NCBI RefSeq assembly: GCF_022846255.1
Contig: NZ_AP025682.1
DNA length: 64,000 nucleotides
Source of the DNA: Escherichia coli
Lineage (GTDB): Bacteria; Pseudomonadota; Gammaproteobacteria; Enterobacterales; Enterobacteriaceae
Reading direction: 5' to 3' (one strand)
The translations under genes and the position numbers were made by a program. Below, one piece after another: positions 1 through 42,310 of the stretch; position 1 is the stretch's first letter; each line of letters begins with the position of its first letter. The notes under the pieces were generated by a model, which was not told the DNA's origin, searched no databases, and was given only the letters and a program-made list of their open reading frames with translations.

Positions 1-918
1 CTCCACGTGCCAGTGGTTTCGGATTGCTGTGGCGAACTTCTCTGCGGTTAAATCAGCAGAACTGATATAATATCTGACCGTCATTTCTGGCTATTTCTTT
101 TGTTCTGCTATTATGGACCGAAAGGAGACTGCCACGCATAATTTCTTCAGTCCTTTCCATTCAAACGTGAAATCAATAAGTTCATCAGGGACATCGCAAA
201 CAATATGAAGACGGATTTCTTCTCTGCCGTGACTTTTTTCACTAATTGCGTAACTGTCATGCTCTGGATTATTCAATTCTTTCAGCGGAAATTTTTCCTC
301 GAAGGCTTTATTTAGCCGCCCCTGGTTTCCTTTTACAGCGAATAAATAATCACCTCCCTGTTTTTGTATCTTCTCTGCAATATCTTTCTGGCAACCCATC
401 GCATCAGTTGTGATGATTTTTCCTTTAATATCCAGCATGTTAAGAAGTTCAGGGATAGCTGTAATTTCATTGGATTTCTCATCCGTCCTGATCTGTCCGA
501 TGACCAGACTGTGCATTGTTGAGAACGCACTAATGACATGAATCGCTCCCCTGCGGCGACTCTTGTCATAAGAATGTCGGAGCGTTTTTCCATCAATTGC
601 AATAACGTCTTTATCATCTGAAGAATGGCAGTCACGCATCCAGTTAATAAAGCACTCGTGAAATTTTGCAGGACTGATACAGGATACAACTCTGGCAATG
701 GTATCGTGAACAGGAATACCATTTTCAAAATCACCATATTGCTTCAAAAAATCGAGATGTGTTTCCCCAAAATCCTCTATATCTTCCCAGCCTTCTGCAC
801 CAGAAATAACGGCACAAATAGTCAACAGTAGAATATCCGATAATTTATGTTCCACTTTCCAGGCTTGTCTGTAATCGGGGATAATAGAAATATGTTCCAT
901 CAATTTTTTAAGTACCAT
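1..918 (-). mobile_element. ISAs1-family (H-repeat-associated) transposase gene, disrupted: in-frame TAG at 91-93, homologous reading frame continues to the window edge
   Basis: 275-aa [29 protein letters not shown]... matches the N-terminal three-quarters of E. coli H-repeat/ISAs1 transposases. Reverse-complement of 1-90 continues in frame as [30 protein letters not shown] after the stop. Confidence 0.7.
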
Positions 919-1147
919 TTTGTTCTCCTTAATTATGTAAGGAGTATTTGATCATGTATAAGCAATAAAAAACAGCTTCAGGTAATGAGGAATATCTCAA
1001 TTTTTAAACATAAAATGCGAATTATTTAGTACAAAAAAGCAGCGTTACGTGATCTTTCCCTGACTGTGTAGGAAAACAGGTTTCCAAGCCCTTCCGAACC
1101 ATTCATGCCTGCAAACAAAAGCAGCTGCGGCGGCACCGCACTACCAC

Positions 1148-1468
1148 TTACTGTGACGTTATGCGCCCCGGACCACCGGCAGCAAGCGACGCCGCCGCAT
1201 CCTGAACTGCACCAGCCATATCCGAGATCCCTGCTGCTGCAGCGGCAGCCTGCGCAGCAGCTACTGCTGCTTTAACCAGACCTGACGGTTCCGGCAACGC
1301 ACCAAACAGGTCCGCCGCTGCCTGTTCTGCCATCTCCTCGGCGGCACCAGATACATCGGTTACGGCTGAACCTGTGCTCATACCGCCACTTTCGCCAGCT
1401 ATTGGTGGTGTGGTGATGACGGGTCCACCGTTTCCAGCTGGTTTGTTACCCGTAGATACAAAACTCAT
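1148..1468 (-). CDS. hypothetical small Ala/Gly-rich protein (106 aa), no recognisable domain
   Basis: ORF with an AGGA-containing putative RBS upstream of the ATG; low-complexity A/G-rich translation; GC-rich relative to AT-rich flanks; lies just downstream of a putative immunity gene. Confidence 0.3.
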
Positions 1469-1492
1469 GATATTTATTCCTTTAATATCGGA

Positions 1493-1864
1493 TTAGAATT
1501 TAGCGCCCGGCTGCCAGAAAAAATAAGAAATAACCCGCCACTGTCCATCTTTATAATGAAAAAAACATGTCAGATTTAAATCCCCCCGCAAATGCCAAAA
1601 CATTTCTTTGATGGGAATATTTCTGAATTCAGTATTCGTTGAGCGATAGGTGTTTTCAATTTCTATATAATACTCACCGACAAATTTATAACGAGGCTTT
1701 ATAAATTCATACGCTGGCTGACCATAGTTATTTAATAGAACATTCTCTTCAACTCCATTATACACACCACTCGCATTCAGATAAGCATGCCCAGGAATAT
1801 CAGACATGCTATTTTTCGCCCCACCCACTATCAAAAAAATTATCACAGCGTATATTAGTTTCAT
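1493..1864 (-). CDS. putative periplasmic immunity protein (signal peptide), partner of the upstream HExxH protein
   Basis: N-terminal hydrophobic signal-like segment MKLIYAVIIFLIVGGAKN; start overlaps the stop of the upstream gene by 4 nt (translational coupling); no recognised domain. Confidence 0.4.
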   Translation of the reverse strand: MKLIYAVIIFLIVGGAKNSMSDIPGHAYLNASGVYNGVEENVLLNNYGQPAYEFIKPRYKFVGEYYIEIENTYRSTNTEFRNIPIKEMFWHLRGDLNLTCFFHYKDGQWRVISYFFWQPGAKF

Positions 1865-2601
1865 TTTTTTACGCTTTTCACAAAAAAATTAGAACCCGGA
1901 ACCATTCTATTTAACCGCTCAATGACATTTCTCATATAACGAGAGCGCAGTTCCATACCAATATTCATTAACGCACTGGCGTCCCCGGAGAATGGTGTAG
2001 TTGCTTTATCTGCATCATCACTATAGTATTCATCAGCAAGATATCCAATAATATGCCCAAGCTCGTGAGACAGCCCTATTTGCTCATGGCAAACTTTTGA
2101 TGAGCCAAGACATTTAGCTGCTGCAACTATATCTTTAGAGTCAAGTTCAACGTATCGACTATTCCAGACAATGGAACTCTGTCGAAAACTATTTGGATCA
2201 TCATTATCAATTTTAAACACCACCACATCCCAATACCCATGACGATCAGTCTGAATTATTTCTATTGAGAAAGATAAATCCTTACCATTAAACTTACTGG
2301 CAAACTCAGACTTCCCAGAAACGGATAAAAAAATCTTATTATTCCATGTTTGATTAATGACAAAAATAACTTTCCCATGAAAGGCATTTTTCTCCAAATC
2401 TGTCCAGTCAGTTTTTGCATCCCATCTTTTTATCCAATTATATTTCCATCTCAGCAACAATGAGATTGCACCATTTTCACGGTCAATTCTTAAATCTCCC
2501 CAGGCATCATTGTCCCTGATATATCGTTTATCCAGCATTAAGTCGTCATAAGCATCGTATGCCTGCTGAATAGCTTCATCATGAGAGTCACCCATGTTCA
2601 C
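1861..2601 (-). CDS. putative zinc-metallopeptidase-like protein (HExxH motif), candidate T6SS effector
   Basis: 246-aa ORF with strong RBS (AAGGAGG) and motif SHELGHIIGYLADEY; no signal peptide; followed by an overlapping signal-peptide ORF; located in the effector-rich tail of the T6SS island. Confidence 0.4.
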   Translation of the reverse strand: MNMGDSHDEAIQQAYDAYDDLMLDKRYIRDNDAWGDLRIDRENGAISLLLRWKYNWIKRWDAKTDWTDLEKNAFHGKVIFVINQTWNNKIFLSVSGKSEFASKFNGKDLSFSIEIIQTDRHGYWDVVVFKIDNDDPNSFRQSSIVWNSRYVELDSKDIVAAAKCLGSSKVCHEQIGLSHELGHIIGYLADEYYSDDADKATTPFSGDASALMNIGMELRSRYMRNVIERLNRMVPGSNFFVKSVKK

Positions 2602-2801
2602 CTCCTTATATTGCTATATATCCAATAAACCTGAAGATGCTTGCTTACCCACCAACGCAGACGGGACCAAGGGTAGCCTGAAGTCAACAGATAGCAGTCA
2701 ACTTGAAGTTCATGGGGATATTTGTTTCCCCATCTACACGTTTATCGTCATATTTTTGTATAGCTATTCTCAGCATTCGTGGGTAGATTATTTTTTTCCA
2801 A

Positions 2802-2906
2802 CCGCAGCGCATCCACATACCGCCCCTCGCTGTTCTGCTGCCACAACCAGCCCTGCCCCTGCTGCGCCTGCGTTAACATTTTTGCTAGCCAGCACGGTCA
2901 CGGCAG
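2802..2906 (-). repeat. degenerate ~105-bp copy of the 3' end of tagF (direct repeat of 3902-4007)
   Basis: Read by eye: ccgcagcgcatccacataccgcccctcgctgttctgctgccacaaccagccctgcccctgctgcgcctgcg... aligns with 3902-4007 at roughly 90% identity; the copy lacks the tagF stop context and sits between two effector/immunity modules. Confidence 0.8.
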
Positions 2907-2924
2907 GCAATTCCATGACAGGTA

Positions 2925-3398
2925 CTACTCATCCGTACAACCCAGCCCCCGGCGCTGAACCACTTCACTGGCAAACGTAGCTCCGGTTTTTTTCATTATT
3001 CCTTTTTGTATTTTTTGCAGCGCGGGAAATGAGATTCTCCTGCATGAATCCTCTTCCCATATATCACCAGTTACAGGACTAACTGAAAATAGTCCCCACA
3101 CATCTGTCGCTCCGGCGGAAGGAGAATCATAACCTACCCCAAAACTAAAATACCCAGGATGATACAGGTTACCTTTTTTATCTTTCAGAGAACCGTCAAG
3201 AAAAAACCCAGACAATTCCACATTATATTTTTCATTTTTTAGTGAAAAAACCAATAATGCCTGCGCCTGTATTTCAGTAAGACCTGACTGGTTAACAGTC
3301 GTTAGATCAAACCGCGGCACATTCCTGATAAGAATTTCAGCACAACAATTCACGGACACGACCATGAAAAGCAATACTGATATTAATTTACAGGACAT
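2925..3398 (-). CDS. putative periplasmic immunity protein (signal peptide) for the upstream GH73-like protein
   Basis: N-terminal signal-like segment MSCKLISVLLFMVVSVNCCA; overlaps the upstream gene by 16 nt; no recognised domain. Confidence 0.4.
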   Translation of the reverse strand: MSCKLISVLLFMVVSVNCCAEILIRNVPRFDLTTVNQSGLTEIQAQALLVFSLKNEKYNVELSGFFLDGSLKDKKGNLYHPGYFSFGVGYDSPSAGATDVWGLFSVSPVTGDIWEEDSCRRISFPALQKIQKGIMKKTGATFASEVVQRRGLGCTDE

Positions 3399-3853
3399 GT
3401 TATTCTCCGCTTAACCATATTAATCACCCACACTAACTCACTAGCATAACCGGTATGGCCGCCATTACTGTTTTTACCTGAATTAAAACCAGAATCAATC
3501 AATGCCTGCGCAAATTGCTCCGGAGATTTTTTATTTCTGACCGCATTACCAAATCGGATTGCAAAGGACTTTCCGCTAGTTGAAAAAAAGGTATAAGTGG
3601 CAACCCACACTTGATTACTCCCCAGCGGGTGAACCTGTCCTGACTGTAAAGGTGCCGGACCATGCATGGAAAAGTAGTTATTGTATTCTGTCGCGATTCT
3701 ACCCTGCCCGTAAAAGGACTCCTTTGCAGCAAGCCCCAGGATATTTTCCACAGGCACATCAAGTTGCTTAGCGATTAATTCACATTCTTTCAGATATTGC
3801 TGTACAAACCTGACTGCACCAGTGTTATTACAGGCTTTATCATAAGACCCCAT
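3383..3853 (-). CDS. GH73-like (FlgJ-type) N-acetylglucosaminidase-like protein, candidate peptidoglycan-targeting T6SS effector
   Basis: 156 aa, no signal peptide, RBS AAGGAG; motif LGLAAKESFYGQG...YNNYFSMHG resembles the GH73 catalytic region (AQAALESGWG...NNLFGIK) recalled from memory; immediately downstream of tagF. Confidence 0.45.
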   Translation of the reverse strand: MGSYDKACNNTGAVRFVQQYLKECELIAKQLDVPVENILGLAAKESFYGQGRIATEYNNYFSMHGPAPLQSGQVHPLGSNQVWVATYTFFSTSGKSFAIRFGNAVRNKKSPEQFAQALIDSGFNSGKNSNGGHTGYASELVWVINMVKRRITCPVN

Positions 3854-3880
3854 GATTCACTACTCCTTGTCTGATTATTT

Positions 3881-4651
3881 TTAATGCGGCCGGATATCCA
3901 GCCGCAACGCATCCACATACCGCCCCTCGCTGTTCTGCTGCCAGAACCAGCCCTGCCCCTGCTGCGCCTGCGTCAGCATTTTGTCCGGCCAGCCCGGCCA
4001 CGGCAGGTGGCGCACACCGGGCAGTTCCACTACCGGCACGTCCGGCAGGCCGGTGAGTTCCCGGCTACGCTGCGGTACACGTCGTAAGCCGCGTAGCCAC
4101 TGCGCCCAGCGCGGCCCCGGTCGCCACATCGCCCAGAGCTGGTCTGTCTGCTCCGCCAGTCGACCGCAGCGTTCTGTCTGTGGTGAGACATGAGCTGCCG
4201 TCAACTGCGCCAGCCAGTACAGCCAGCCCTGTGTGTCATCCAGGCTCTCTTCCAGCCATTCCCGCCCGACACGCTGGTAAATCACCAGTGGCCACGGCCT
4301 GCCCGTACTGTCACGCGAGGCGGTCAGGACCCCGGTCAGCCACTCATCGCGCCCGCCAATGGGGAGAAATCCCGGCGACAGCACAAAACTCCACGGCAAT
4401 GGGTGGTGCTCCGGTAGTGCCGTTTTCTCACGTGGTGACAGGTGCATCCAGCCGTCATTTGTTCCGGCCTTCGCAGCATCCGTTCCTTCCGGCAGAACAA
4501 TATGCCGTCCCTGTCCCAGCCACGTTTGCTGGTTCAGCCACGCCTGCCACACCTGCCCTTCGTTCGCGCTCACTCGCCAGCGCACATAGTCCCGCTGGTC
4601 CGGCAGTCTGCCGAACATCGCCGGGGCCGATATCTCTGCCCGGCGCATCAC
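3881..4651 (-). CDS. tagF: T6SS-associated protein TagF (ImpM family)
   Basis: N-terminal FGRLPDQRDYVRW matches the TagF signature (FGKLPxxGDFVxR); W-rich, GC-rich ORF downstream of the tssM/tae4 block. True start may be the internal Met of AMFGRLP. Confidence 0.6.
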   Translation of the reverse strand: MMRRAEISAPAMFGRLPDQRDYVRWRVSANEGQVWQAWLNQQTWLGQGRHIVLPEGTDAAKAGTNDGWMHLSPREKTALPEHHPLPWSFVLSPGFLPIGGRDEWLTGVLTASRDSTGRPWPLVIYQRVGREWLEESLDDTQGWLYWLAQLTAAHVSPQTERCGRLAEQTDQLWAMWRPGPRWAQWLRGLRRVPQRSRELTGLPDVPVVELPGVRHLPWPGWPDKMLTQAQQGQGWFWQQNSEGRYVDALRLDIRPH

Positions 4652-4836
4652 AACGTCCTTACCGGACAGGTGAAGTTTTTCAGCAATTCCCGGTAATACA
4701 GAACATAATTCTTCATTTCAATAATAAAGTCAGATATCAGGATTAATTTTCTTCCACAGGAATCAGAGCATTTATAATAAAATCGCTCAGGCATCCCCCC
4801 AACAAAGAGAACAGGAATCAGCTTCCAATAAAATTG

Positions 4837-5313
4837 TTAATTCAGTTCCCAGAACCAGATTTCCTTGCAGCTAAAATAGCAATGTGAATGACATATAGCA
4901 CCTGTGGTAGAAGGCTCAATAAGATCTATATGACCGCCACCGTAACCCGTAATTTTCCAGAAAAAGACCACTCCTCTTTTATTACTGGTGTCTGTTTTAA
5001 ATTTTTCTGAGTCACACCAGATAACTGGTCTTCCAAAAACATCAGCTCGGGAAAGCTGATCTGCCAGTAATTTCGCACCGGTTTCTATTTTCTTCCCTTT
5101 CCAGTCACCACTTTTGATCGTCAGTCGCCCGTTAAAGCTGACGCCTGATTTAATCAGCGCCAGACTCATACGTGTGGCACAGGTATTTACATAACCAGCA
5201 TTTTGCTGTTGCAGTGCTTCATAGTTATAACCCACTTCACTGTACAAAACATCACCATCAATCTGAACTGATGAGTAATGGTTTTTTTTAAGTGTGAAAA
5301 ATGAAGGTTTCAT
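4837..5313 (-). CDS. tae4: Tae4-family peptidoglycan amidase effector
   Basis: 158 aa; motif NTCATRMSLALIKSG matches the Tae4 catalytic Cys region (NACPIRMSYVLN) and GGGHIDL the His region, by recall of Salmonella/Enterobacter Tae4; no signal peptide; start overlaps the stop of the upstream signal-peptide gene. Confidence 0.65.
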   Translation of the reverse strand: MKPSFFTLKKNHYSSVQIDGDVLYSEVGYNYEALQQQNAGYVNTCATRMSLALIKSGVSFNGRLTIKSGDWKGKKIETGAKLLADQLSRADVFGRPVIWCDSEKFKTDTSNKRGVVFFWKITGYGGGHIDLIEPSTTGAICHSHCYFSCKEIWFWELN

Positions 5314-6005
5314 TTATTATTTCCTTTATCACAGGAGTGTTTACTTAGTGCCTCAATAATAATATTTGCAGCCCGTTCATTCAGTTTATCTGACGTTTTT
5401 TTTCTGAAATACCAGTAAATAATCTCATCCAGTGTAACTGTTTTAATCGTTTTATAATCGCACCATGTTTTTCTTTCCGTGGCATCTTCTATACCCAAAA
5501 GATAGATTTTCGCATTAAGCCTATCCTGCCTGTTATCTGACTGCCAGAAGCGGAAAAAATCATCTCCGTTCAGATCGAACGCGCCAGAGGTCAGGTGTGA
5601 AACAGATGAATGCCGGGGAGATTTTTTTTCCGGTGATGCCATATCCGGGCAGGGAAACAGCCTGACCATCGCTTGTTCAATCAGAGTTGAAGCTCGCATA
5701 TTCATATCGTTAACCGACTGCTGATTAAGATATGTCAGTACCGATGAATAAAGTTCTATTTCATTAATCTTATTATATCCACACCAGGTTTTACTTTCTG
5801 TCGCATCACTCACACCAAGGACATACATCAGAACATTTTCTTTTTCCTGTGACGTTCCACGAGCATAAAATGACAAAAATTCCTGCGCACTGAGATTAAT
5901 ATAATCGGGGTCAATAGTTCCTGTGTTTTTTCTGATATCAGCAAAAACATTTCCTGACATGGCATATAACAAAAAAATAATAAAAAAACGCGTATATTGT
6001 TGCAT
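5310..6005 (-). CDS. tai4: Tai4-like periplasmic immunity protein, internally tandem-duplicated (two homologous domains)
   Basis: Signal peptide MQQYTRFFIIFLLYAMSGNVFA; the two halves are visibly homologous (…VLMYVLGVSDATESKTWCGYNKI… versus …KIYLLGIEDATERKTWCDYKTI…); 4-nt overlap with tae4. Confidence 0.5.
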   Translation of the reverse strand: MQQYTRFFIIFLLYAMSGNVFADIRKNTGTIDPDYINLSAQEFLSFYARGTSQEKENVLMYVLGVSDATESKTWCGYNKINEIELYSSVLTYLNQQSVNDMNMRASTLIEQAMVRLFPCPDMASPEKKSPRHSSVSHLTSGAFDLNGDDFFRFWQSDNRQDRLNAKIYLLGIEDATERKTWCDYKTIKTVTLDEIIYWYFRKKTSDKLNERAANIIIEALSKHSCDKGNNK

Positions 6006-6251
6006 ATCATGCTTCCTGAATCACGGTAGTAGGATGGTCGCTATAACGTCGGTTTAAGAAAGTTTATAGTTTTGTTGCGTCGTTGCCCTGCCATCTCAGT
6101 ATATAAGTGACATTAATGGTGCCTTTTTGCTCACCTGGTGTAACGGCCTGTTTTAGCATACAACTCCACGTCAAGACATCCGTGAATGCAGCCTTTAGCA
6201 TAGTCACATGGGTCCGGTAGTCTGCCAACGATACTGCCGCCGCCCGGCGTA

Positions 6252-9200
6252 TCACAGCGCTCGCTCCGGGCAGGCGAAGCGTTGTAATAGTCCGCGATCC
6301 ACTGGGTCAAAATCCCGTCCGGCGGTGATTTCCAGTATCACCCGCCGCCCGTCAAAGCTGTACTCCACCTGCTGTGTTCCCCGTACCGCCGTTTCTTGCG
6401 CTTTTCCCGCATCCAGCAGGTGAAACAGCGCCCACGGTCCATTAGTCAGCAGCGTCGAGGTGTCCTGGCGGATGCGCGGGCTGGCGGTTATTTCCGCCAT
6501 TGAGCCGTTGCGCGGACCCGGCCAGTTCACTTTCAGCGGCCTGACCGGGCCGTGAGCGTAACGCAGTACCTGGCCGTCAATGTCAATCACCAGTTCGGTG
6601 ATGGCCGGGTCCATATCCACGACGCGGACCTGCATCGCCCATGAGAACTTTTTCCCTCCGTCGCCGTTAAAAAACACGCTGCGGATCTGTTTCGCCTCCT
6701 GAAACGGCGTCAGGTCTGGACCCTGTAAGGTCATGTTGCCTTCGGTCGGTTTGTAGCGCCACGGGTTGCTGGCGGTATCCGCCAGTGGGGCCAGTTGCTT
6801 CGTCCAGAAGGCATCCAGCACGCCGCCGCTGGCAAAGATACGGTTAAAATCGTCCGCGCTGACCTCCTGCGGGCTGTCGGTGAAGGGGTAGCGCCCGTCG
6901 ATGGCGTCGCGGCACTCATCACCGATCACCGCCTCCATCTGCGCGTTCAGCACTTCACCGGTGCCGGCGTTGATTTTTCGCGTTCCCTGCTGCGTGAGAT
7001 CCAGCAGAATATTTTTCAGCGGCGCGGGCAGTTTTGCCGCCTCCAGTTGCAGTTTATCCGCCGCAGAAATGCGCCCCGGCAGAGTGCTCGCAGCCAGCGC
7101 ACTGTCGGCAATGGTGAGCTGGGTGTAGTACTCATTGAGCATCGTCAGCAGCGAATTTAATTGCGGCACGCCGCCGCCCTGCCCGCTGTCCGTCTGCCCG
7201 GAAACCACTTCCCGCAGGGCGGCGAAACGGTCATCCACCAGTGATTTTTCCAGCCGCTCTTCCGGGTGAATGTCCTGCAACAGCTTCGCCGTCTGCACCG
7301 CTTTTCCCGCATTGCCGGAGAGCCGGTCCTGCGCGCGCTGGGCCATCTGCTTTTGTCTGGCCTGCGCATTCAGCGGCGGCACCAGCGTGGTCTGCTCCAC
7401 CACCGCTTTACTCAGGCGCATCAGCGGGGAATCCGGCGAGGCCAGAGTACGCAGCACCTGAAGGTCATACGCTAGTCCAGGGCTACCGTCCTCCCCGGCG
7501 CTGTTGATGCTGTGAATGCTTGCCAGAAAATCCTGCCATCGGCGAGCATATTCAGCCAGGTACAGACGACGTACCTCACGGGTAACCGGGAGTTCCTGCC
7601 CCGGCAACTGGCTCATCACAATATCAGTCGTTTTTTTTTGCGCACTTTCCCGGCCCATCACCCAGGCGTCGTCCGCTGATGCGGCGGCGACAAACTCCGA
7701 CAGCCGTTTGTCGAACAGTTCCCGGTAGCCTTCGCGGGTGAAGATGCCGGGCACGCCCCTGTCCAGCGGCGCGCCATCCGTGCGGACAAAAACTGTTCCC
7801 GCATCCGCGCCCACAGCGCGAACCAGCGAAAACTCCTGCGGTGCTTCGCTCTCCATGGAAGCCAGGGCTCGAGTGTAGATACGCTCAGTGCTGGTATGGC
7901 CGTCAAGGAAGGCCCGCGCCTGGCGGATCAGCCCCTCATCTTTTTCCCAGGGCGAATGCACCACGCGGCTGCCGTCAAACAGGGCGTCAATATGCTCCAG
8001 CACGGCTGCGCGACCGCCAAACTCCGCTACGCTGTCGCGGTTGTCCAGATCGTTCAGCACCCAGGCGTGGATCTCCGCCGCGTTGTATTTGTCCTCGTGG
8101 TCCTTATCGAGGTTCAGCAGCAGATAAACATGCAGGGCGTCATAGGCGGCTTTGCTGTCCTGACGCGCAATCGCATCTGAAAGCACGTATTCCATTCGTT
8201 TCACCAGCGGAGGGAGCAGTAGCTGGTCCAGCAGGCGGTCATACAGGGATGCGACACTCTCCATCACCGGCGGGACGCTGTAAAGACCATAACGCCAGGC
8301 CAGCGGCGGCGAGTCCGGGTCCAGCCCCGGCCAGGCAGAGAGCGCCCGCGCCTGGTTCAGCAGGGCCGGAACAGGCTGCATAGCAGGTTTTCCGGTATAG
8401 GCTTTGACATCACCATCCAGTTGGGTCGTCCGGCTGGCGATTTCATTCAGATAACCGCTGTTACCCTGCTGGCTACCCTGCATTCCCTGCCACAACCAGA
8501 AAGCCAGCGCCAATACCAGCAGATGCCCGCCGGTACGCAGCAGGCGATAACGCCAGGCCCATTGAAGATTCGGCTCCACCAGGTGCGCTTCGCGGAAGAT
8601 AAACTGCGTCAGTAGATCGTGCAGGAAATAGCTGCGGTTGCCGTCCGGCAGGGTATGGGATGGGGAATCCGCCTTCCCTTTGATCGCCCGGACAAAACGC
8701 TGCCAGATGCCCGTCTGATCGGCCACCGCGTCTGCCTGCGCCTGCGCGGCACTGGTGAAAAATACGCCGCGCAGGGTGTTGTTAAGCTGGGTAGCATCAA
8801 ATTTTGAATCGAGGAAAATCTGTTCAATAGCTTCCAGCAGCGGCGCACCCAGCGCGGCAAATTCACGCGGGAAGCGGTAGAGCCGCTGACGGCTTTTAAG
8901 GTCATATTCTTCCTGCAACCGGGTATCCAGCCCCTGATCCAGCCGCTGTGTCAGGTTTGCCAGTTCCCGGCCACAGAGCGCATGCAGCGACTGCGGATCG
9001 CTGGCGTGACGCCTGCGGCTGTAAGGCAGGGTGAAGCCCCAGACCTGGGCTCGCAGGTGACTGGTCAACCCACGGAAATACTCCGTAAAGCCCGGCAGCA
9101 GATCCATCTTGGTGACAACCAGATAGACCGGAAAACGAATGCCCAGCGTCTCCCGCAGTTCCGCCAGCCGCGCACGCAGAGCTGCACAGGCAGCCAGCCG

Positions 9201-10118
9201 TTCCGCCGGGGACTGCGCGGTCAGATCCGCCACGTTCAGCGTCAGGATCACGCCGTTGAGCGGTGCGCCGGGGCGGTGTTTACGCAGCAGTCCCAGAAAC
9301 CCCTGCCACTCCCCGGCGTTGCGCTGGGTCGCGCTGATTTCGCCACCGTCATCGTGGCGAGCATAGCGCCCGGCGGTGTCAATAAGCACTGCTTCGTTGG
9401 TAAACCACCAGTCGCAGTGCAGCGTGCCGCCGCCCGGCACGGTGAGAATATGCGCGGTTTGCTCCATCTGCTCCGCCAGCGGAAACTGTAGCCCGGTGTT
9501 AAGCAGCGCGGTGGTTTTACCATCGCCGGGGCTGCCGATAACCATAAACCACGGCAGCTCGTACAGAAAACGCTTTCCTTCCAGGACTTTTCGCCAGCCA
9601 GGAAGATCCACACGCAGTTGTTTCAGTTGCCGGATGGCGCGGTTGACAATATGGCTGACGGTACGCAGGTCGGCTTTAATTTCCCCCTCCACCGGTACGT
9701 CTTCCCCACGCGGATGCAGGAAACGGCGCAGCAGTTGTTCATCCAGACGCAGCGCCCGCCACAGCCGGTACAGGCCATACAGCGCATAAGTCAGCAGGAT
9801 CAGACCGATAAGCGTCAGACGCAGCCACAGCGGCGCAAATGGATGAACATCACCGAGGGACAGCAGGGGTGAAACAAAACCGATGACCAGGCACAGAACC
9901 GTCACGCCAATGATGCTCATCGACCAGTTAACCAGCCACAGTGCGAGGAACATCAGTAACAGAACGATGGTGACTACCCGACTTCCCACAGACGCGAGCG
10001 GATGCACGGTGTCAAACGCCACCAGCGGCCCGATAAACCAGACCAGCAGCGCCAGTACCGCCACGCCGACAACAGCCAGCGCGCGGCGGGAAAACAGCAG
10101 ACTGAGAAATTTTTGCAT
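6252..10118 (-). CDS. tssM: T6SS membrane core protein TssM (IcmF family)
   Basis: 1288 aa; N-terminal transmembrane segments, Walker A GSPGDGKTT, large periplasmic C-terminal region; typical IcmF architecture. Confidence 0.9.
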   Translation of the reverse strand: MQKFLSLLFSRRALAVVGVAVLALLVWFIGPLVAFDTVHPLASVGSRVVTIVLLLMFLALWLVNWSMSIIGVTVLCLVIGFVSPLLSLGDVHPFAPLWLRLTLIGLILLTYALYGLYRLWRALRLDEQLLRRFLHPRGEDVPVEGEIKADLRTVSHIVNRAIRQLKQLRVDLPGWRKVLEGKRFLYELPWFMVIGSPGDGKTTALLNTGLQFPLAEQMEQTAHILTVPGGGTLHCDWWFTNEAVLIDTAGRYARHDDGGEISATQRNAGEWQGFLGLLRKHRPGAPLNGVILTLNVADLTAQSPAERLAACAALRARLAELRETLGIRFPVYLVVTKMDLLPGFTEYFRGLTSHLRAQVWGFTLPYSRRRHASDPQSLHALCGRELANLTQRLDQGLDTRLQEEYDLKSRQRLYRFPREFAALGAPLLEAIEQIFLDSKFDATQLNNTLRGVFFTSAAQAQADAVADQTGIWQRFVRAIKGKADSPSHTLPDGNRSYFLHDLLTQFIFREAHLVEPNLQWAWRYRLLRTGGHLLVLALAFWLWQGMQGSQQGNSGYLNEIASRTTQLDGDVKAYTGKPAMQPVPALLNQARALSAWPGLDPDSPPLAWRYGLYSVPPVMESVASLYDRLLDQLLLPPLVKRMEYVLSDAIARQDSKAAYDALHVYLLLNLDKDHEDKYNAAEIHAWVLNDLDNRDSVAEFGGRAAVLEHIDALFDGSRVVHSPWEKDEGLIRQARAFLDGHTSTERIYTRALASMESEAPQEFSLVRAVGADAGTVFVRTDGAPLDRGVPGIFTREGYRELFDKRLSEFVAAASADDAWVMGRESAQKKTTDIVMSQLPGQELPVTREVRRLYLAEYARRWQDFLASIHSINSAGEDGSPGLAYDLQVLRTLASPDSPLMRLSKAVVEQTTLVPPLNAQARQKQMAQRAQDRLSGNAGKAVQTAKLLQDIHPEERLEKSLVDDRFAALREVVSGQTDSGQGGGVPQLNSLLTMLNEYYTQLTIADSALAASTLPGRISAADKLQLEAAKLPAPLKNILLDLTQQGTRKINAGTGEVLNAQMEAVIGDECRDAIDGRYPFTDSPQEVSADDFNRIFASGGVLDAFWTKQLAPLADTASNPWRYKPTEGNMTLQGPDLTPFQEAKQIRSVFFNGDGGKKFSWAMQVRVVDMDPAITELVIDIDGQVLRYAHGPVRPLKVNWPGPRNGSMAEITASPRIRQDTSTLLTNGPWALFHLLDAGKAQETAVRGTQQVEYSFDGRRVILEITAGRDFDPVDRGLLQRFACPERAL

Positions 10119-24418: not shown

Positions 24419-26302
24419 ATGGATCCACGGCTACTGGAATACTACAACCGCGAACTGAGCTATCTGCGGGAAACGGGAGCCGAATTTGCCGCCCGTCATC
24501 CTAAAGTCGCCGCCCGACTGGGTATGCAGGGAACGGATATTGCCGATCCGTATGTGGAGCGAATGGTCGAGGCCTTCAGCTTCCTGACCGCCCGCACGCA
24601 GCTAAAAATTGACGCTGAATTCCCCCGTTTCACCCAGCGTCTGCTGGAAGTGGTCAGCCCCAATTACGTCACACCCACGCCCTCAATGAGCGTGGCGCAG
24701 CTTCATCCCGATCCGGAAGAAGGCGATCTGGCGAAGGGATTCACCGTCCCGCGCAACACGGCCTTTTTTTCCGCCATTCCGGAAGGCGAAAGTACCGCCT
24801 GCCAGTTTCGTAGCAGCCAGAATGTGACGCTGTGGCCGCTTGCCATCGAAGAGGTGCGGCTGACCGCCGCGCCGCCGGATATGCCTGCCCTGCACCGCTA
24901 CCTGCCAGCCAACATTCACGTCGCTGGTGCGCTGCGTATTACCCTGCGCACCTTTGGTGAACTGACGTTCAGTCAGCTTGCAGGGCTGAACAAGCTGCCA
25001 TTTTATCTCTGCGGCGAGGAGCGCACGGCCTCACACCTGTTCGAACTACTGCATACCAGCGCCATCGCGAGCCTGGCTGGCATTCCGGGGCATTTTGACG
25101 GCGCACTGGATGTGAATCTGAAACAGCCCGTTATGTACGAAGGCCTGGATCCGGATCAGGGACTGTTGCCGCTGGCGTGGAATGTGTTTCACGGCCATAA
25201 CCTGCTACATGAATATTTTACCTGTCCGGAACGCTTCTTTTTTTTCACCCCGACAGGCCTGTCTGACGGGTTACAGAAAATTAACGGCGGCGTGGCGGAG
25301 ATTGTTATCCTGCTGAACCGCCTGCCGCCGGACTGGCTGATCCACCAGACAAACGCGGCACAGTTCAGCCTGTTCTGTACCCCGGTTATCAACCTGTTTC
25401 CCCGCGTCGCCGCCCGGATCGATGTCACGCACAGCACGACGGAACAGCATCTGGTGGTGGACAGAACCCATCCGCTGGATTATGAGGTGTTCTCGGTCCA
25501 AGAAGTGGAAGGGCTGGAAACTGACACCACACGGAAGATGGCCTTTCGCCCGCTCTACCACACCCGCAATAATGATGAAGGCAATCACGGACGTTATTTT
25601 TCCCTGCGCCGGGAGCCGCGCCGGTTGTCGGAAAATGCCCGCCGCTATGGCACCCGCACCTCCTATACAGGATCAGAAGTGTTCCTGTCGCTGGTTGACC
25701 AGTATGAAGCGCCGTACCCGGAAAATCTGCGCCATATCACCATCACGGCTATGGTCACCAACCGCGATCTGCCCTGTCTTATTGCCCGCAATGGACGGGA
25801 CGATCTGACCGTGGATGCGGCCATCCCGGTGGCGGGTGTGGGGCTTATCCGTCCGCCGCGTCCGCCGCAGCCTCCGCTGGCTGAACGTGAAATGGCCTGG
25901 CGGTTGATCCGCCAGTTATCCTTTAACTATCTGCCGCTGGCCGATCTGGATCACCGTACCGGTGGTCAGGCGCTGCGCGATCTGCTTAACCTGTTTATTC
26001 CGGCGCATGACAGTCCGCAGTCGCGCCAGGTGCGCAGCCTGATTGGCTGCAACACCACCCCGGTCACCCGCCGTCTGCCCGGTTCCGGGCTGCTGGTCTA
26101 TGGGCGCGGCGTCAGTTGTGAACTGACCGTGGATGAGGAGGGGTTCTCCGGTATCAGTCCGTATCTGTTCGGTCTGGTGTTGGAGCACTATATCGCCCGT
26201 CATGTTTCCATTAATACCTTCTCGCAGATGACGCTGCACAGCATGCAGCGCGGCAAAATTATGACCTGGCCTGCCAGGACGGGACAGCGGGGAAGCGTAT
26301 GA
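24419..26302 (+). CDS. tssF: T6SS baseplate protein TssF
   Basis: 627 aa; N-terminus MDPRLLEYYNRELSYLRETGAEFAARHPKVAARLG is the TssF signature. Confidence 0.85.
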   Translation: MDPRLLEYYNRELSYLRETGAEFAARHPKVAARLGMQGTDIADPYVERMVEAFSFLTARTQLKIDAEFPRFTQRLLEVVSPNYVTPTPSMSVAQLHPDPEEGDLAKGFTVPRNTAFFSAIPEGESTACQFRSSQNVTLWPLAIEEVRLTAAPPDMPALHRYLPANIHVAGALRITLRTFGELTFSQLAGLNKLPFYLCGEERTASHLFELLHTSAIASLAGIPGHFDGALDVNLKQPVMYEGLDPDQGLLPLAWNVFHGHNLLHEYFTCPERFFFFTPTGLSDGLQKINGGVAEIVILLNRLPPDWLIHQTNAAQFSLFCTPVINLFPRVAARIDVTHSTTEQHLVVDRTHPLDYEVFSVQEVEGLETDTTRKMAFRPLYHTRNNDEGNHGRYFSLRREPRRLSENARRYGTRTSYTGSEVFLSLVDQYEAPYPENLRHITITAMVTNRDLPCLIARNGRDDLTVDAAIPVAGVGLIRPPRPPQPPLAEREMAWRLIRQLSFNYLPLADLDHRTGGQALRDLLNLFIPAHDSPQSRQVRSLIGCNTTPVTRRLPGSGLLVYGRGVSCELTVDEEGFSGISPYLFGLVLEHYIARHVSINTFSQMTLHSMQRGKIMTWPARTGQRGSV

Positions 26303-28482: not shown

Positions 28483-28559
28483 TGGCGGAACGGACGGGAC
28501 TCGAACCCGCGACCCCCTGCGTGACAGGCAGGTATTCTAACCGACTGAACTACCGCTCC
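28483..28559 (-). tRNA. aspV: tRNA-Asp (GUC)
   Basis: Reverse complement reads GGAGCGGTAGTTCAGTCGGTTAGAATACCTGCCTGTCACGCAGGGGGTCGCGGGTTCGAGTCCCGTCCGTTCCGCCA; adjacent to dnaQ as in E. coli. Confidence 0.92.
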
Positions 28560-36544: not shown

Positions 36545-36665
36545 AATATGCCTCTTTTAATGCTATTTTCGTTAACTGAAGTGATTATGGGCTTTAGAAT
36601 GTTGCGGAAAAAGGGCGTAAAACGCAGAGGATTTTTGCGATTTAAGCAATAATAGAAATATAGAC

Positions 36666-36697
36666 GAAAAAAAACCTCGAGCGTTAACTCGAGGCTT
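36666..36697 (-). terminator. rho-independent terminator of the rrnH operon (after aspU)
   Basis: Inverted repeat cctcgag / ctcgagg with loop cgttaa, followed on the transcribed strand by a T-tract (plus-strand run aaaaaaaa). Confidence 0.75.
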
Positions 36698-36706
36698 CTT
36701 AATAAG

Positions 36707-36783
36707 TGGCGGAACGGACGGGACTCGAACCCGCGACCCCCTGCGTGACAGGCAGGTATTCTAACCGACTGAACTACCGCTCC
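36707..36783 (-). tRNA. aspU: tRNA-Asp (GUC), distal tRNA of rrnH
   Basis: Sequence identical to the aspV copy at 28483-28559. Confidence 0.92.
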
Positions 36784-36835
36784 ACCGAATTCTTTTACAA
36801 CCACCGGTTTTATGACCGGCTTACTGCTTAATTTG

Positions 36836-36955
36836 ATGCCTGGCAGTTCCCTACTCTCGCATGGGGAGACCCCACACTACCATCGGCGCTACGGCGTTTC
36901 ACTTCTGAGTTCGGCATGGGGTCAGGTGGGACCACCGCGCTACGGCCGCCAGGCA
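36836..36955 (-). rRNA. rrfH: 5S ribosomal RNA
   Basis: 120 nt; reverse complement begins TGCCTGGCGGCCGTAGCGCGGTGGTCCCACCTGACCCCATGCCGAACTC (E. coli 5S). Confidence 0.95.
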
Positions 36956-37054
36956 AATTCTGTTTTATCAACACGTCTCGTTATGACCTGTCGATTTAAT
37001 CTGTATCAGGCTGAAAATCTTCTCTCTATCCGCCAAAACATCTTCGGCGTTGTA

Positions 37055-39957
<2,903 letters not shown>

Positions 39958-40140
39958 TCACAACCCGAAGATGTTTCTTGCGATCCATCATCGTGTTGCG
40001 AAAATTTGAGAGACTCACGAACAACTTTCATTGTTCAGTGTTTCAATTTTCAGCTTGATCCAGATTTTTAAAGAGCAAAACTTCGCAGTGAACCTTTGCA
40101 GGTACACTCTGAAGTATTTTTTATTTAATCACTACAGAGA

Positions 40141-40216
40141 TGGTGGAGCTATGCGGGATCGAACCGCAGACCTCCTGCGTGCAAAGCAGGCGCTCTCCCA
40201 GCTGAGCTATAGCCCC
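40141..40216 (-). tRNA. alaV: tRNA-Ala (UGC), spacer tRNA
   Basis: Reverse complement reads GGGGCTATAGCTCAGCTGGGAGAGCGCCTGCTTTGCACGCAGGAGGTCTGCGGTTCGATCCCGCATAGCTCCACCA. Confidence 0.92.
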
Positions 40217-40258
40217 ATAACATGTAGTTAAAACCTCTTCAAATTTGCGGTGCAAATT

Positions 40259-40335
<77 letters not shown>

Positions 40336-40403
40336 GTAGAGGTTTTACTGCTCATTTTCATCAGACAATCTGTGTGAGCACTTCAAAGAACGCTTCTTTA
40401 AGG

Positions 40404-41945
<1,542 letters not shown>

Positions 41946-42076
41946 AAAAGTTTGATGCTCAAAGAATTAAACTTCGTAATGAATTACGTGTTCACTCTTG
42001 AGACTTGGTATTCATTTTTCGTCTTGCGACGTTAAGAATCCGTATCTTCGAGTGCCCACACAGATTGTCTGATAAA

Positions 42077-42089
42077 TTGTTAAAGAGCA
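42077..42089 (-). promoter_or_regulatory. boxA antitermination element in the rrn leader
   Basis: Reverse complement is TGCTCTTTAACAA, the canonical rrn boxA. Confidence 0.8.
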
Positions 42090-42129
42090 GTTGCGACGCG
42101 GCTTTCAGCTCACTGTCGCGAGGTGGCGT

Positions 42130-42157
42130 ATATTACGCTTTCCTCTTTCAGAGTCAA
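42130..42157 (-). promoter_or_regulatory. rrnH P2 promoter (-35 TTGACT, -10 TAATAT, 16-bp spacer)
   Basis: Hexamers read directly on the reverse complement, about 110 bp downstream of P1 as in rrn operons. Confidence 0.7.
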
Positions 42158-42239
42158 TCCTGAATTTCAGGATTTTTCTCTTCAACCGAACCGGCTGTTT
42201 GTGTGAAGTGATTCACATCCGCCGTGTCGATGGAGGCGC

Positions 42240-42290
42240 ATTATAGGGAGTCGGCTCAGGAAGACAAGCGAAAAAATGCATTTTTATTTC
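42240..42290 (-). promoter_or_regulatory. rrnH P1 promoter with upstream AT-rich UP element (-35 TTGTCT, -10 TATAAT)
   Basis: Reverse complement reads GAAATAAAAATGCATTTTTTCGCTTGTCTTCCTGAGCCGACTCCCTATAATGCGCCTCC, closely resembling rrnB P1. Confidence 0.75.
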
Positions 42291-42310
42291 AACTGCTCAT
42301 CTTTTAATCA

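Follow-up and report, generated by a model that had tools for sequence, protein, structure and literature searches.

A duplicated tagF 3' end as a probable record of cassette addition by tagF-anchored recombination in an Escherichia coli T6SS island

Gene content of the tagF–vgrG interval

The DNA analysed here, referred to below as the window, is a stretch of 64,000 nucleotides from E. coli. Its tagF-to-vgrG interval is a stack of effector/immunity (E/I) modules in a tRNA-Asp-linked, SPI-6-like T6SS island (Table 1). In this genome a Tae4/Tai4 cassette lies between tssM and tagF, and its products are 100% identical to those of AR_0077 genes annotated 'Tae4 family' and 'Rap1a/Tai family'. The cassette is absent from many relatives; in loci L001, L003, L004 and L005, tssM adjoins tagF. 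It is itself bracketed by a short repeat of its own insertion junction. The intact tagF gene is assigned to the TagF family by its match to TIGR03373 and by its place beside tssM in a T6SS cluster; relatives have it annotated as TagF, and its orthologues in Salmonella and Citrobacter carry PF09867 TagF_N.

The gene pair that follows tagF belongs to the Tge2/Tgi2 T6SS effector/immunity family by homology of both partners, delivery and toxicity being predicted. The effector matches chain A of PDB entry 4KT3 (E = 3e-45), which we take to be the Tge2PP–Tgi2PP complex, in agreement with the NCBI name 'Tgi2PP family', and its orthologues in relatives are annotated 'glucosaminidase domain-containing protein'. 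Homologues of the immunity gene carry PF21576 T6SS_Tgi2PP and the annotation 'Tgi2PP family T6SS immunity protein'.

Beyond this pair lies a second, intact module with a putative metallopeptidase effector (the HExxH module, 1493..2601). Searches of NCBIfam, Pfam and PDB with the HExxH protein gave no family match beyond weak M64, M57 and reprolysin-like similarity around the HELGH motif, the Pfam matches being the weak M64 and M57 ones. The vgrG fragment that ends the array is 99.5% identical (one indel) to an orphan vgrG 5' fragment of AR_0077 and 97.8% identical to the full vgrG of that strain, and the similarity common to thousands of genomes stops at about position 1066. With Tae4/Tai4 counted, the window strain has four intact effector/immunity pairs or candidates around tagF, their E/I roles being predicted. 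Elsewhere in the window, a 94-nt 'tRNA-His' called by ARAGORN at 26085-26178 lies inside a long ORF and is probably a false positive.

Table 1. Features of the tagF region, by position in the window
Feature	Position	Strand	Remarks
ISAs1-family transposase	91..918	-	Truncates the array; NF033564 E = 1e-91
vgrG 5' fragment	1067..1468	-	Frameshifted, cut off by the insertion sequence
Immunity candidate of the HExxH module	1493-1864	-	Small, with signal peptide; intact ORF
HExxH (HELGH) putative metallopeptidase effector	1861-2601	-	Intact ORF; displaced module 1493..2601
R2-left	2797..2874	-	'Young' part of the orphan, crossover zone; identical to AR_0077-type resident tagF end
R2-right	2875..2907	-	Old, decayed, cassette-linked part of the orphan; 8 substitutions incl. 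TGG to TGA
Spacer, immunity stop codon to R2	2908..2924	-	17 nt; R2-side end is the presumed original illegitimate junction
Tgi2-family immunity gene	2925..3398	-	16-nt overlap with effector; PDB 4KT3 chain B E = 5e-36
Tge2-family peptidoglycan glucosaminidase effector, GH73-type	3383..3853	-	Pfam PF01832 E = 2e-7
tagF, intact	3881..4651	-	TIGR03373, 41.7 bits vs cutoff 41.2; downstream of tssM
R1, functional repeat copy	3897..4007	-	Last conserved 111 nt of tagF, inside tagF
Tae4 amidase effector (4837-5313) and Tai4/Rap1a immunity (5310-6005)	4837..6005	-	Cassette between tssM and tagF
tssM	6252..10118	-	Conserved upstream core T6SS gene; 1288-aa ORF; orthologues annotated tssM in all related loci

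The tagF-end repeat and its two-part orphan copy

A repeat search reported just one family of direct repeats, made up of R1 and R2 (2797-2907), two ungapped copies of 111 nt that are 90% identical (11 mismatches; blastn E = 2.5e-39) and spaced 1100 bp apart. R1 ends 16 nt before the tagF stop codon, and R2 starts 17 nt past the stop codon of the immunity gene (2925). A sequence-only reading of this DNA had described a repeat of ~105 bp and ~90% identity (2802-2906 and 3902-4007), which was right except for a left end about 5 nt short, and had placed the effector/immunity pair between the tagF 3' end and an orphan fragment of it, as the positions of R1 and R2 on either side confirm. Chance and assembly artefact were rejected on the E value and on the recurrence of the structure in 12 complete E. 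coli genomes, in one Escherichia sp. and in PGAP annotations, where further E. coli genomes have this piece labelled 'TagF domain-containing protein, incomplete, missing N-terminus'.

R2 is a pseudogene fragment of the tagF 3' end with an in-frame stop: in the tagF frame it reads LP*PCWLAKMLTQAQQGQGWLWQQNSEGRYVDALRLE, and tagF itself reads LPWPGWPDKMLTQAQQGQGWFWQQNSEGRYVDALRLD. In several R1 alleles of other strains, successive substitutions are spaced at multiples of 3 nt, the pattern that synonymous changes would leave in a coding sequence under selection. In the window the C-terminal tail of tagF is DIRPH*, the last five codons and the stop being specific to the cassette-linked version; at empty sites the tagF end, in the R2-type frame, reads EKNNLPTNA..., and the AR_0077 gene is annotated 30 nt longer.

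Comparison of 10 orphan copies (window, L001, L003 and L005-L011) shows that R2 has two distinct parts. On the cassette side, the eight substitutions of R2-right are invariant in all 10 copies (L010 has one extra change); they are not 3-periodic and amount to 24% divergence, with a stop codon among them. R2-left, by contrast, is identical to locus L002 at 77 of 77 positions over the aligned stretch, and across strains it tracks the tagF allele linked to the downstream module, falling into three types. Differences thus number 8/33 in R2-right and 0/78 in R2-left (Fisher p = 3e-5). At position 2854 both the R2 of the window and resident tagF have T, whereas eight of the nine other orphans examined have A. 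The comparison indicates that the distal part of the orphan has been repeatedly renewed by recipient tagF sequence. Intragenomic gene conversion was rejected as the source of the young R2-left, which differs from R1-left of the same genome (at 3 sites in the window and at more in L003) and matches empty-site strains with the same downstream module. A foreign intact tagF allele was likewise rejected as the source of R2-right: its substitutions are absent from Salmonella and Citrobacter tagF ends, which points to decay.

The junction at 2907/2908 has the same position in all 10 orphans, suggesting that it arose once. The spacer beside it varies at a single position, apart from an additional difference in L001, and the junction is unchanged even where the Tge2/Tgi2 core is just 35-72% identical (40-nt bins). 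In a search for exact matches to a 38-mer of R2-right, with one genome per species, the sole finding was in Escherichia sp. E1V33.

Carriers, empty sites and the origin of the orphan

We surveyed 5,426 complete E. coli genomes and compared about 20 loci in detail, four of them from Salmonella and Citrobacter. This tagF end is present in 114 of the 5,426 genomes and is present twice in exactly 12; the cassette occurs in 12, each time directly after tagF. Two tagF ends were found in all of the cassette carriers (12/12) and in none of the non-carriers (0/102), which supports the sequence-only reading of the repeat as a scar of cassette insertion or displacement. That reading had also held that the HExxH module once lay directly downstream of tagF, and had named comparison with related islands as a check. 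At least 10 E. coli genomes (H49-H58), AR_0077 and 2014C-3338 among them, do have the HExxH gene directly after tagF and lack the approximately 1100 bp, as predicted, and the same arrangement is found in loci L002, L004 and L014. Among single-module strains, L014 has the HExxH module, and L012 has a pair of 702- and 387-nt genes (the 'E3 module') directly after tagF.

The empty site of AR_0077 further supports the insertion-scar reading. There the 1100 bp are precisely what is missing, the HExxH gene follows tagF directly, and the single repeat is a perfect chimera of the left 77 nt of R2 and the right 33 nt of R1. In tssM, Tae4/Tai4 and the HExxH module, both AR_0077 and 2014C-3338 share 99.8-100% identity with the window; in tagF the identity is 100% for AR_0077 and 97.8-99.4% for 2014C-3338. 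A second pair of carrier (L003) and empty site (L004) exists on another tagF allele.

Several observations bear on horizontal spread. Cassette identity is 98.3-99.7% among strains with 88-100% identity in tagF and 92-99% in tssM, although purifying selection, rather than recent spread, could partly account for its conservation. The window agrees with AR_0077 at every discriminating site in 1496-2796 and 4096-4660, whereas its cassette is of the L001/L007 type, unlike the AR_0077-matching flanks.

Other modules, in E. coli, Escherichia sp., Salmonella and Citrobacter, also have an orphan tagF-end remnant in front of them. These remnants share a common end position on the 134-nt tagF-end profile and start at positions 24, 99, 67, 78, 78 and 30, with differing upstream ends and lengths of about 34 to 111 nt. 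The Salmonella loci include a tandem Tge2/Tgi2 pair and an orphan Tgi2, and Tgi2 stands without an effector in L016 and L017. A Tgi2/remnant junction common to E. coli and Salmonella is a possibility whose sole support is a 6-nt match (CCTGCC), and by nhmmer the Salmonella remnant starts at profile position 67, not 24.

These results are consistent with a model, which we consider very probable, in which R2 is what remains of an earlier resident tagF, its 3' end now displaced, and new cassettes join the tagF 3' end through tagF-anchored recombination, the first join being illegitimate and later spread proceeding by homologous recombination through R2. In the first step, which we infer to have occurred once, long ago, incoming tagF-Tge2-Tgi2 DNA would have paired with the resident tagF, and its far end, lacking homology, would have joined illegitimately at a point 111 nt short of where conserved tagF stops. 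With this DNA would have come a complete tagF end (R1, with the DIRPH* tail), and the old end, R2, would have been shifted downstream together with the resident module, which stayed intact; keeping the immunity gene of that module plausibly shields the recombinant against its kin. From then on, as the comparison of strains shows, the unit of tagF end, Tge2, Tgi2 and R2 has had homology on either side and moves between strains, or is lost, by RecA-type homologous recombination with its downstream crossover in R2-left. Such a crossover explains why the 33 cassette-side nucleotides are decayed and travel with the cassette, whereas the other 78 are replaced by those of the recipient.

For the window itself, the favoured course is that an AR_0077-like tagF-HExxH strain gained the cassette from a donor resembling R32_14_1F or 24A16CRGN010. 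The transferred tract would span 1.07-1.53 kb, with an upstream crossover in 3945-4327 and a downstream crossover in 2797-2874, narrowed to 2855-2874 for a donor with the common A at 2854. The outcome would be additive, the old E/I pair staying and the new pair joining it. Gain and loss through the repeat leave an identical sequence pattern, and gain in the window lineage rather than loss in its relatives is favoured but not proven. The call draws on T at 2854, a single site, and on parsimony, with several AR_0077-like empty genomes against one carrier.

The opposite direction would make cassette plus R2 the ancestral state, from which AR_0077-type strains arose when RecA recombined R1 with R2 and the cassette was lost; the repeat would then be mainly a deletion substrate. 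We regard this as unlikely. Such a deletion would leave precisely the R1-right/R2-left chimera seen as the repeat of AR_0077, and in the window the two copies have in common an uninterrupted block of 29 identical nucleotides (2845-2873 / 3945-3973), where the exchange would fall. A length of 29 nt comes near the lower limit generally given for efficient RecA recombination in E. coli. However, T at 2854, against A in most of the other orphans, is what a segment taken from an intact resident tagF would be expected to show; the collection includes several AR_0077-like genomes with an empty site, two of which were studied in detail, and no AR_0077-like genome with the cassette; and the cassette tract of the window resembles L001/L007 although its flanks do not. 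Loss would, moreover, strip a cell of immunity to an effector that its kin still fire.

A Campbell-type route seems distinctly improbable. Here recombination between R1 and R2 in a donor would excise a 1.1-kb circle of one repeat plus Tge2/Tgi2, which a single crossover could insert into any tagF 3' end, regenerating the flanking repeats. The unit is indeed exactly one repeat plus cassette with sharp boundaries at both repeats, the tandem Tge2/Tgi2 units of Salmonella resemble repeated integrations, and the Tae4/Tai4 cassette likewise has its insertion junction briefly repeated at its two ends. A single crossover, however, would give both copies donor repeat sequence on the same side of a single exchange point, and the invariant R2-right and complete donor-type R1 suit a linear double crossover equally well. 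No circle, replication origin or transfer function is present, a non-replicating 1.1-kb circle would have no obvious route between cells, and the first duplication would still require an illegitimate event.

It is very improbable that the tagF-end copies are functional module leaders (a promoter, a translational-coupling signal or an RNA element) instead of scars. The same 3' portion of tagF does stand before several unrelated modules in three genera, always with the common end, and R2-left is perfectly conserved relative to functional tagF. Against this, R2-right has decayed freely, as its stop codon and 24% divergence attest, the remnants vary in length with unequal upstream ends, and their common downstream end is simply where the conserved tagF coding sequence stops. 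A promoter and terminator scan found no sigma-70-like promoter or terminator inside R1 or R2, and as RNA the repeat is no more structured than its shuffled versions (z = 0.17).

Site-specific, integron-like or transposon-type insertion, with the repeat as attachment site or target-site duplication, is largely refuted and extremely improbable: the build-up of cassettes after a single fixed gene recalls an integron array, to which the Vibrio loci have been likened too (PMC5361080), but window positions 1-10,000 hold no integrase, no integrase or transposase lies in or beside the cassette, the sole transposase (ISAs1) is 1.9 kb away and unrelated to the junctions, the insert consists of effector and immunity genes alone with no inverted repeats at its ends, RNA folding found no hairpin-forming attachment site, the remnants' unequal upstream junctions (profile positions 24, 30, 67, 78 and 99) are not the uniform structured sites of integrons, and repeats of 111 nt that differ at 10% of positions (11) are unlike the short identical repeats of a target-site duplication.

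Relation to known systems and significance

Addition by tagF-anchored recombination would be a further example of the displacement already documented for Rhs, CdiA and Vibrio E/I arrays. C-terminal displacement with orphan toxin/immunity arrays has reportedly been described for Rhs and CdiA in work by Jackson et al. (2009), Poole et al. (2011) and Koskiniemi et al. (2014). The analogy with such arrays, drawn in the sequence-only reading, holds in part. In both cases the 3' part of a conserved gene is directly repeated, with the intact copy upstream, a truncated copy downstream beyond the newer module and recombination between the copies, and here relatives preserve the pre-insertion state. In Rhs and CdiA, however, the repeat lies within the toxin gene and the orphan is a toxin tip that recombination can re-activate, whereas the tagF orphan comes from an accessory gene and encodes nothing useful, serving just as homology arm and scar. 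It carries no toxin tip and leaves no orphan immunity gene; the displaced E/I pair is complete, and modules accumulate instead of being replaced.

Homology-facilitated illegitimate recombination (HFIR) combined with homologous recombination has been proposed for the E/I arrays of Vibrio cholerae (PMC5361080) and for the vgrG islands of P. aeruginosa (PMC11751169). In the V. cholerae T6SS (Kirchberger et al. 2017, PMC5361080), as here, a conserved upstream gene provides the homology, the join at the opposite end is illegitimate, older material moves downstream and is kept, and finished arrays spread by homologous recombination with no integrase. The anchor that HFIR calls for is present in our case, with tagF 88-100% identical among carriers and R1 continuous with it. 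In Vibrio, however, the old effector gives way to an incoming module, and what stays behind is an orphan immunity gene, in some cases together with a stub of the effector 3' end (PMC5361080), whereas here anchor and orphan derive from the accessory gene tagF, the displaced E/I pair is complete, effectors accumulate, and the orphan is a mosaic whose distal part is repeatedly renewed. In P. aeruginosa the dominant breakpoint likewise lies at the 3' end of a conserved gene just upstream of the effector, but replacement occurs without duplicated anchor fragments (PMC11751169); here the anchor end is physically duplicated, and the event is therefore directly readable.

Another close counterpart is VR2 of Salmonella SPI-6 (subtype i3), which also lies between tssM/tagF and vgrG, carries Tae4, Tge2/Tgi2 and an M64-like peptidase candidate, and varies between strains (PMC10469887, PMC12288458, PMC12994826). 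The M64-like candidate effector has been described as a 243-aa protein (PMC10469887), and the VR2 publications catalogue effectors (PMC10469887, PMC12288458, PMC12994826). The idea that VR1 and VR2 are recombination hot spots is said to lack support, since mobile elements do not flank them (PMC10469887). The Salmonella loci compared here carry tagF-end remnants as well; tagF is unmentioned in these three publications, and our literature searches returned no description of a tagF remnant.

A broader reading can be offered tentatively. In Enterobacteriaceae with SPI-6-type T6SS, the last 70-110 nt of tagF may be a general, recombinase-free docking sequence for E/I cassettes. Each cassette's decayed copy would be its portable downstream arm, and RecA alone could insert any cassette at any tagF end, stack cassettes there in tandem, excise them and swap them. 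The same might hold at the tssM/tagF junction, where Tae4/Tai4 lies, and at the vgrG 5' end.

T6SS effector repertoires determine which strains can coexist, and how cargo effectors are exchanged inside a conserved SPI-6-type cluster has so far been left open. The orphan tagF end is a readable record of this exchange: new cassettes would enter at the tagF 3' end, old modules would be retained, such that arsenal and immunity set grow together, and a decayed remnant would still work as a homology arm. As a practical marker, the number of tagF-end remnants reveals the insertion history of an array. If the docking reading is true, VR2 would be an 'integron without an integrase', which would explain its variability without mobile elements.

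A tagF-derived orphan next to the Tge2/Tgi2 cassette

The type VI secretion island of this E. coli chromosome spans approximately 1-28,400 and is bounded by a tRNA-Asp gene (28483-28559), and its region between tssM and vgrG, laid out below in order of transcription, corresponds to VR2, a variable region of the Salmonella SPI-6 / subtype-i3 cluster. The cassette that follows tagF consists of a Tge2-type effector gene and a Tgi2-type immunity gene, whose products each match one chain of PDB 4KT3 (E = 3e-45 and 5e-36). Downstream lies a gene for an HExxH protein whose size and position recall those of the M64-like candidate effector of Salmonella VR2 (PMC10469887). Elsewhere in the window, ARAGORN calls a 94-nt tRNA-His (26085-26178) within a 627-aa ORF of the T6SS cluster (24419-26302), which is probably a false positive. 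The stretch of about 5.7 kb at 36600-42300, which has no long ORFs and carries tRNA-Asp (36707-36783) and tRNA-Ala and tRNA-Ile (40141-40335), is most likely occupied by a ribosomal RNA operon, flanked by housekeeping genes.

Features of the tagF-proximal part of the island, in window positions
Feature	Position	Strand	Remark
tssM	6252-10118	minus	first in transcription order
Tai4	5310-6005	minus	after tssM
Tae4	4837-5313	minus	between Tai4 and tagF
tagF	3881-4651	minus	TIGR03373 score over cutoff
R1	3897-4007		functional repeat copy in tagF
Tge2-type glucosaminidase	3383-3853	minus	after tagF; PF01832 (GH73-type Pfam domain), E = 2e-7
Tgi2 immunity gene	2925-3398	minus	after Tge2; followed by a 17-nt spacer, then R2
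R2	2797-2907		orphan copy of the tagF end
R2-right	2875-2907		33 nt, cassette side
R2-left	2797-2874		78 nt, distal side
HExxH (HELGH) protein	1861-2601	minus	after R2; M64/M57 hits weak
Small signal-peptide protein	1493-1864	minus	after HExxH gene
vgrG 5' part	1067-1468	minus	about 400 nt; frameshifted, cut by ISAs1 element
ISAs1 transposase	91-918		truncates vgrG

A repeat search over positions 1-8000 returned a single long direct-repeat family, R1 and R2, which are 111 nt long, 90% identical without gaps and spaced by 1100 nt (blastn E = 2.5e-39); the coordinates and identity proposed in the sequence-only reading were essentially right. The final 127 nt of tagF contain R1, whose end is 16 nt short of the stop codon. 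Translated in the tagF frame, R2 reads LP*PCWLAKMLTQAQQGQGWLWQQNSEGRYVDALRLE, where tagF itself reads LPWPGWPDKMLTQAQQGQGWFWQQNSEGRYVDALRLD, so R2 is a C-terminal piece of tagF broken by an in-frame stop. The feature itself is not hidden, since the NCBI pipeline (PGAP) annotates R2-type fragments in other genomes as incomplete TagF pseudogenes. We found no promoter-like or terminator-like site in R2 and no RNA folding signal (z = 0.17) that would point to another role, and no recombinase gene nearby.

The duplication is tied one-to-one to the cassette. Among 5,426 complete E. coli genomes, the 989-bp cassette occurs in 12, directly after tagF every time, with 98-99.7% identity in eight and as a variant of about 76% in four; 114 genomes have the 111-nt tagF end, at 126 places in all, and exactly 12 of them have two copies. 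At least 10 genomes (H49-H58) match the window over 1100-4700, yet are about 1100 bp shorter. The clearest case of an exact empty site is AR_0077 (L002), which shares 99.8-100% identity with the window in tssM, Tai4, Tae4, the whole of tagF, and the HExxH gene and its partner, and in which the HExxH module directly follows tagF with no cassette unit between them. Its single repeat is chimeric, with the left 77 nt those of R2 and the right 33 nt those of R1, and has the sequence that would be expected of an R1 x R2 exchange in either direction. A second pair, the carrier VCSW7 (L003) and the empty-site strain 2012C-4221 (L004), shows the same relationship on a tagF allele that is about 10% divergent. 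Single modules are found in other strains, HExxH at comparison locus L014 and a 702/387-nt gene pair (E3) at L012.

Mosaic structure of the orphan

We tabulated 25 repeat copies from 15 loci. In several intact tagF ends, the substitutions relative to R1 come in runs with spacings of multiples of 3 nt, a spacing that synonymous changes in a selected coding sequence should show. R2-right carries eight substitutions, TGG to TGA among them, that show no 3-periodicity and are absent from the tagF of E. coli, Salmonella and Citrobacter. These changes are identical in 10 of 10 orphans, and the junction between the Tgi2 flank and R2 likewise keeps one position in every orphan, including those with a Tge2/Tgi2 core of only 35-72% identity (40-nt bins). 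Taken together, the shared changes and the fixed junction point to a single origin.

R2-left has none of these changes and instead matches the tagF allele linked to the downstream module: its A/G/C type is the allele of AR_0077 and 2014C-3338 and precedes HExxH type a, its T/A type is the allele of 2012C-4221 and precedes HExxH type b, and a third type precedes an 807/363-nt gene pair. With 8 differences in 33 nt against 0 in 78 nt, decay within R2 is far from uniform (Fisher p = 3e-5); the distal part has accordingly been recently and repeatedly replaced by functional tagF sequence. Crossovers inside R2-left, at each entry of the cassette into an empty site or each swap of the module behind it, would produce such renewal. 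Five module types part from the tagF sequence within 0-2 nt of position 3897, which is simply the end of the conserved TagF coding sequence; the final few tagF codons are module-specific.

Gain or loss and possible exchange of the cassette

Compared site by site, the window agrees with AR_0077 at all sites that discriminate it from comparison loci L001 and L007 across 1496-2796 and 4096-4660, and its cassette is of the L001/L007 type with three to four private differences. The part of R1 that corresponds to R2-left holds the three cassette-linked variants, and position 2854 in R2 is T, as in intact tagF and in place of the A of most other orphans. All of these observations are explained by import from an L007-like donor, and we consider it probable, on this pattern of variants, that the window lineage gained the cassette. 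Such an import would place the upstream crossover within 3945-4327 and the downstream one inside R2, at 2855-2874, or at 2797-2874 if the donor carried T, for an imported tract of 1.07-1.53 kb. Loss of the cassette in the AR_0077 lineage, through a 29-nt identical block, would yield the same chimeric repeat, but it is unlikely, being less parsimonious with several empty AR_0077-like genomes and one carrier, the window, and needing a separate explanation for the odd T at 2854. Gain and loss are in any case both parts of one mechanism.

Six other E. coli lineages carry the cassette at 98.3-99.7% identity to that of the window, and Escherichia sp. E1V33 carries it at 95%, compared with 88-100% for tagF and 92-99% for the tssM 3' end in the same strains. 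This greater uniformity than in the surrounding core genes fits horizontal spread by recombination. In the variant carried by four E. coli genomes and compared at L005 and L011, the core (2980-3740) is 35-72% identical in 40-nt bins. Identity is 87-100% at the gene ends and in R1 and R2-right, and the conserved ends take in ~110 nt at the start of Tge2, ~100 nt at the end of Tgi2, and R2-right. Allele replacement between conserved arms and strong diversifying selection both typically leave such a pattern; in this variant it suggests that alleles were exchanged between fixed arms.

Remnants at other modules and a proposed origin of the array

All comparison loci were scanned with a 134-nt nucleotide profile built from intact tagF ends, which recovered further remnants. 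A 34-nt remnant, preceded by a 774-bp orphan vgrG 5' fragment, lies before the E3 module at seven loci (L001, L002, L005, L006, L007, L009 and L010), and 67-nt remnants follow Tgi2-type genes in Salmonella (L015-L017). Citrobacter farmeri (L019) has three, of 47, 54 and 103 nt, each before a different module. In Salmonella enterica L015 (AAABVB010000050.1, 4546-6606), two Tge2/Tgi2 units in tandem each have tagF-end sequence behind them, the remnant behind the first carrying an internal deletion; in L016 and L017 (3515-5569), the second Tgi2 has lost its effector, leaving a 557-nt gap. The remnants end at a shared profile position (132-133) and start at positions 24, 99, 67, 78, 78 and 30; the differing starts thus reflect several illegitimate joins that arose independently, rather than one fixed site.

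In relatives (L002, 3468-4370; L001, 7605-8506), the HExxH module is followed by the orphan vgrG fragment, a 72-87-nt gene fragment and the 34-nt remnant, then by a third effector/immunity pair (702/387 nt) and a full vgrG. The vgrG piece of the window is 99.5% identical to that orphan fragment, with an indel of 1 nt, and ISAs1 truncates it; the rest of the array (vgrG, DcrB-like chaperone and PAAR-Rhs) is absent from this side of the window. In Hafnia alvei ATCC 51873 (L018, JH417541.1, 4446-9026), genes of the phage-integrase type flank two adjoining Tgi2-family immunity genes and two TsiV-family genes. No effector and no T6SS core gene is nearby, and the group resembles a mobile islet made up of orphan immunity genes.

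The Tae4/Tai4 cassette, in the tssM-tagF interval, also has a short degenerate direct repeat on both sides (4638-4675 and 6242-6279; 38 nt, 29 matches or 76%, offset 1604, P ~5e-9 for a fixed offset). The repeat covers the junction of the tssM stop and the tagF start: beside the real tssM stop is a decayed start of tagF (ATG to ATA, with 3 extra nt), and beside the real tagF start is a decayed end of tssM. The two genes abut in strains without Tae4/Tai4 (L001, L003, L004 and L005). These flanks suggest that an insertion scar of the same kind is present at a second site.

We propose that the founding event was a tagF-anchored recombination with an illegitimate far joint inside the recipient tagF end, that is, homology-facilitated illegitimate recombination, as has been proposed for Vibrio (PMC5361080) and for P. 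aeruginosa vgrG islands (PMC11751169). Selection may have favoured recombinants that retained the resident immunity gene, because kin cells still fire the resident effector. Thereafter, with homology on both sides of the cassette, RecA alone would suffice. The process is already known from Rhs/CdiA displacement, Vibrio effector/immunity arrays and Pseudomonas effector swapping; unlike in those systems, the anchor and the orphan here derive from the accessory gene tagF and not from a toxin, modules are added and not replaced, and the orphan can be demonstrated to be a homology arm that is still active. In the searchable literature, the Salmonella VR papers list the same cargo and mention neither tagF nor its remnants, and one of them considers the hot-spot idea unsupported, given the absence of mobile elements (PMC10469887). 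The orphan tagF end offers a concrete, testable explanation of VR2 variability.
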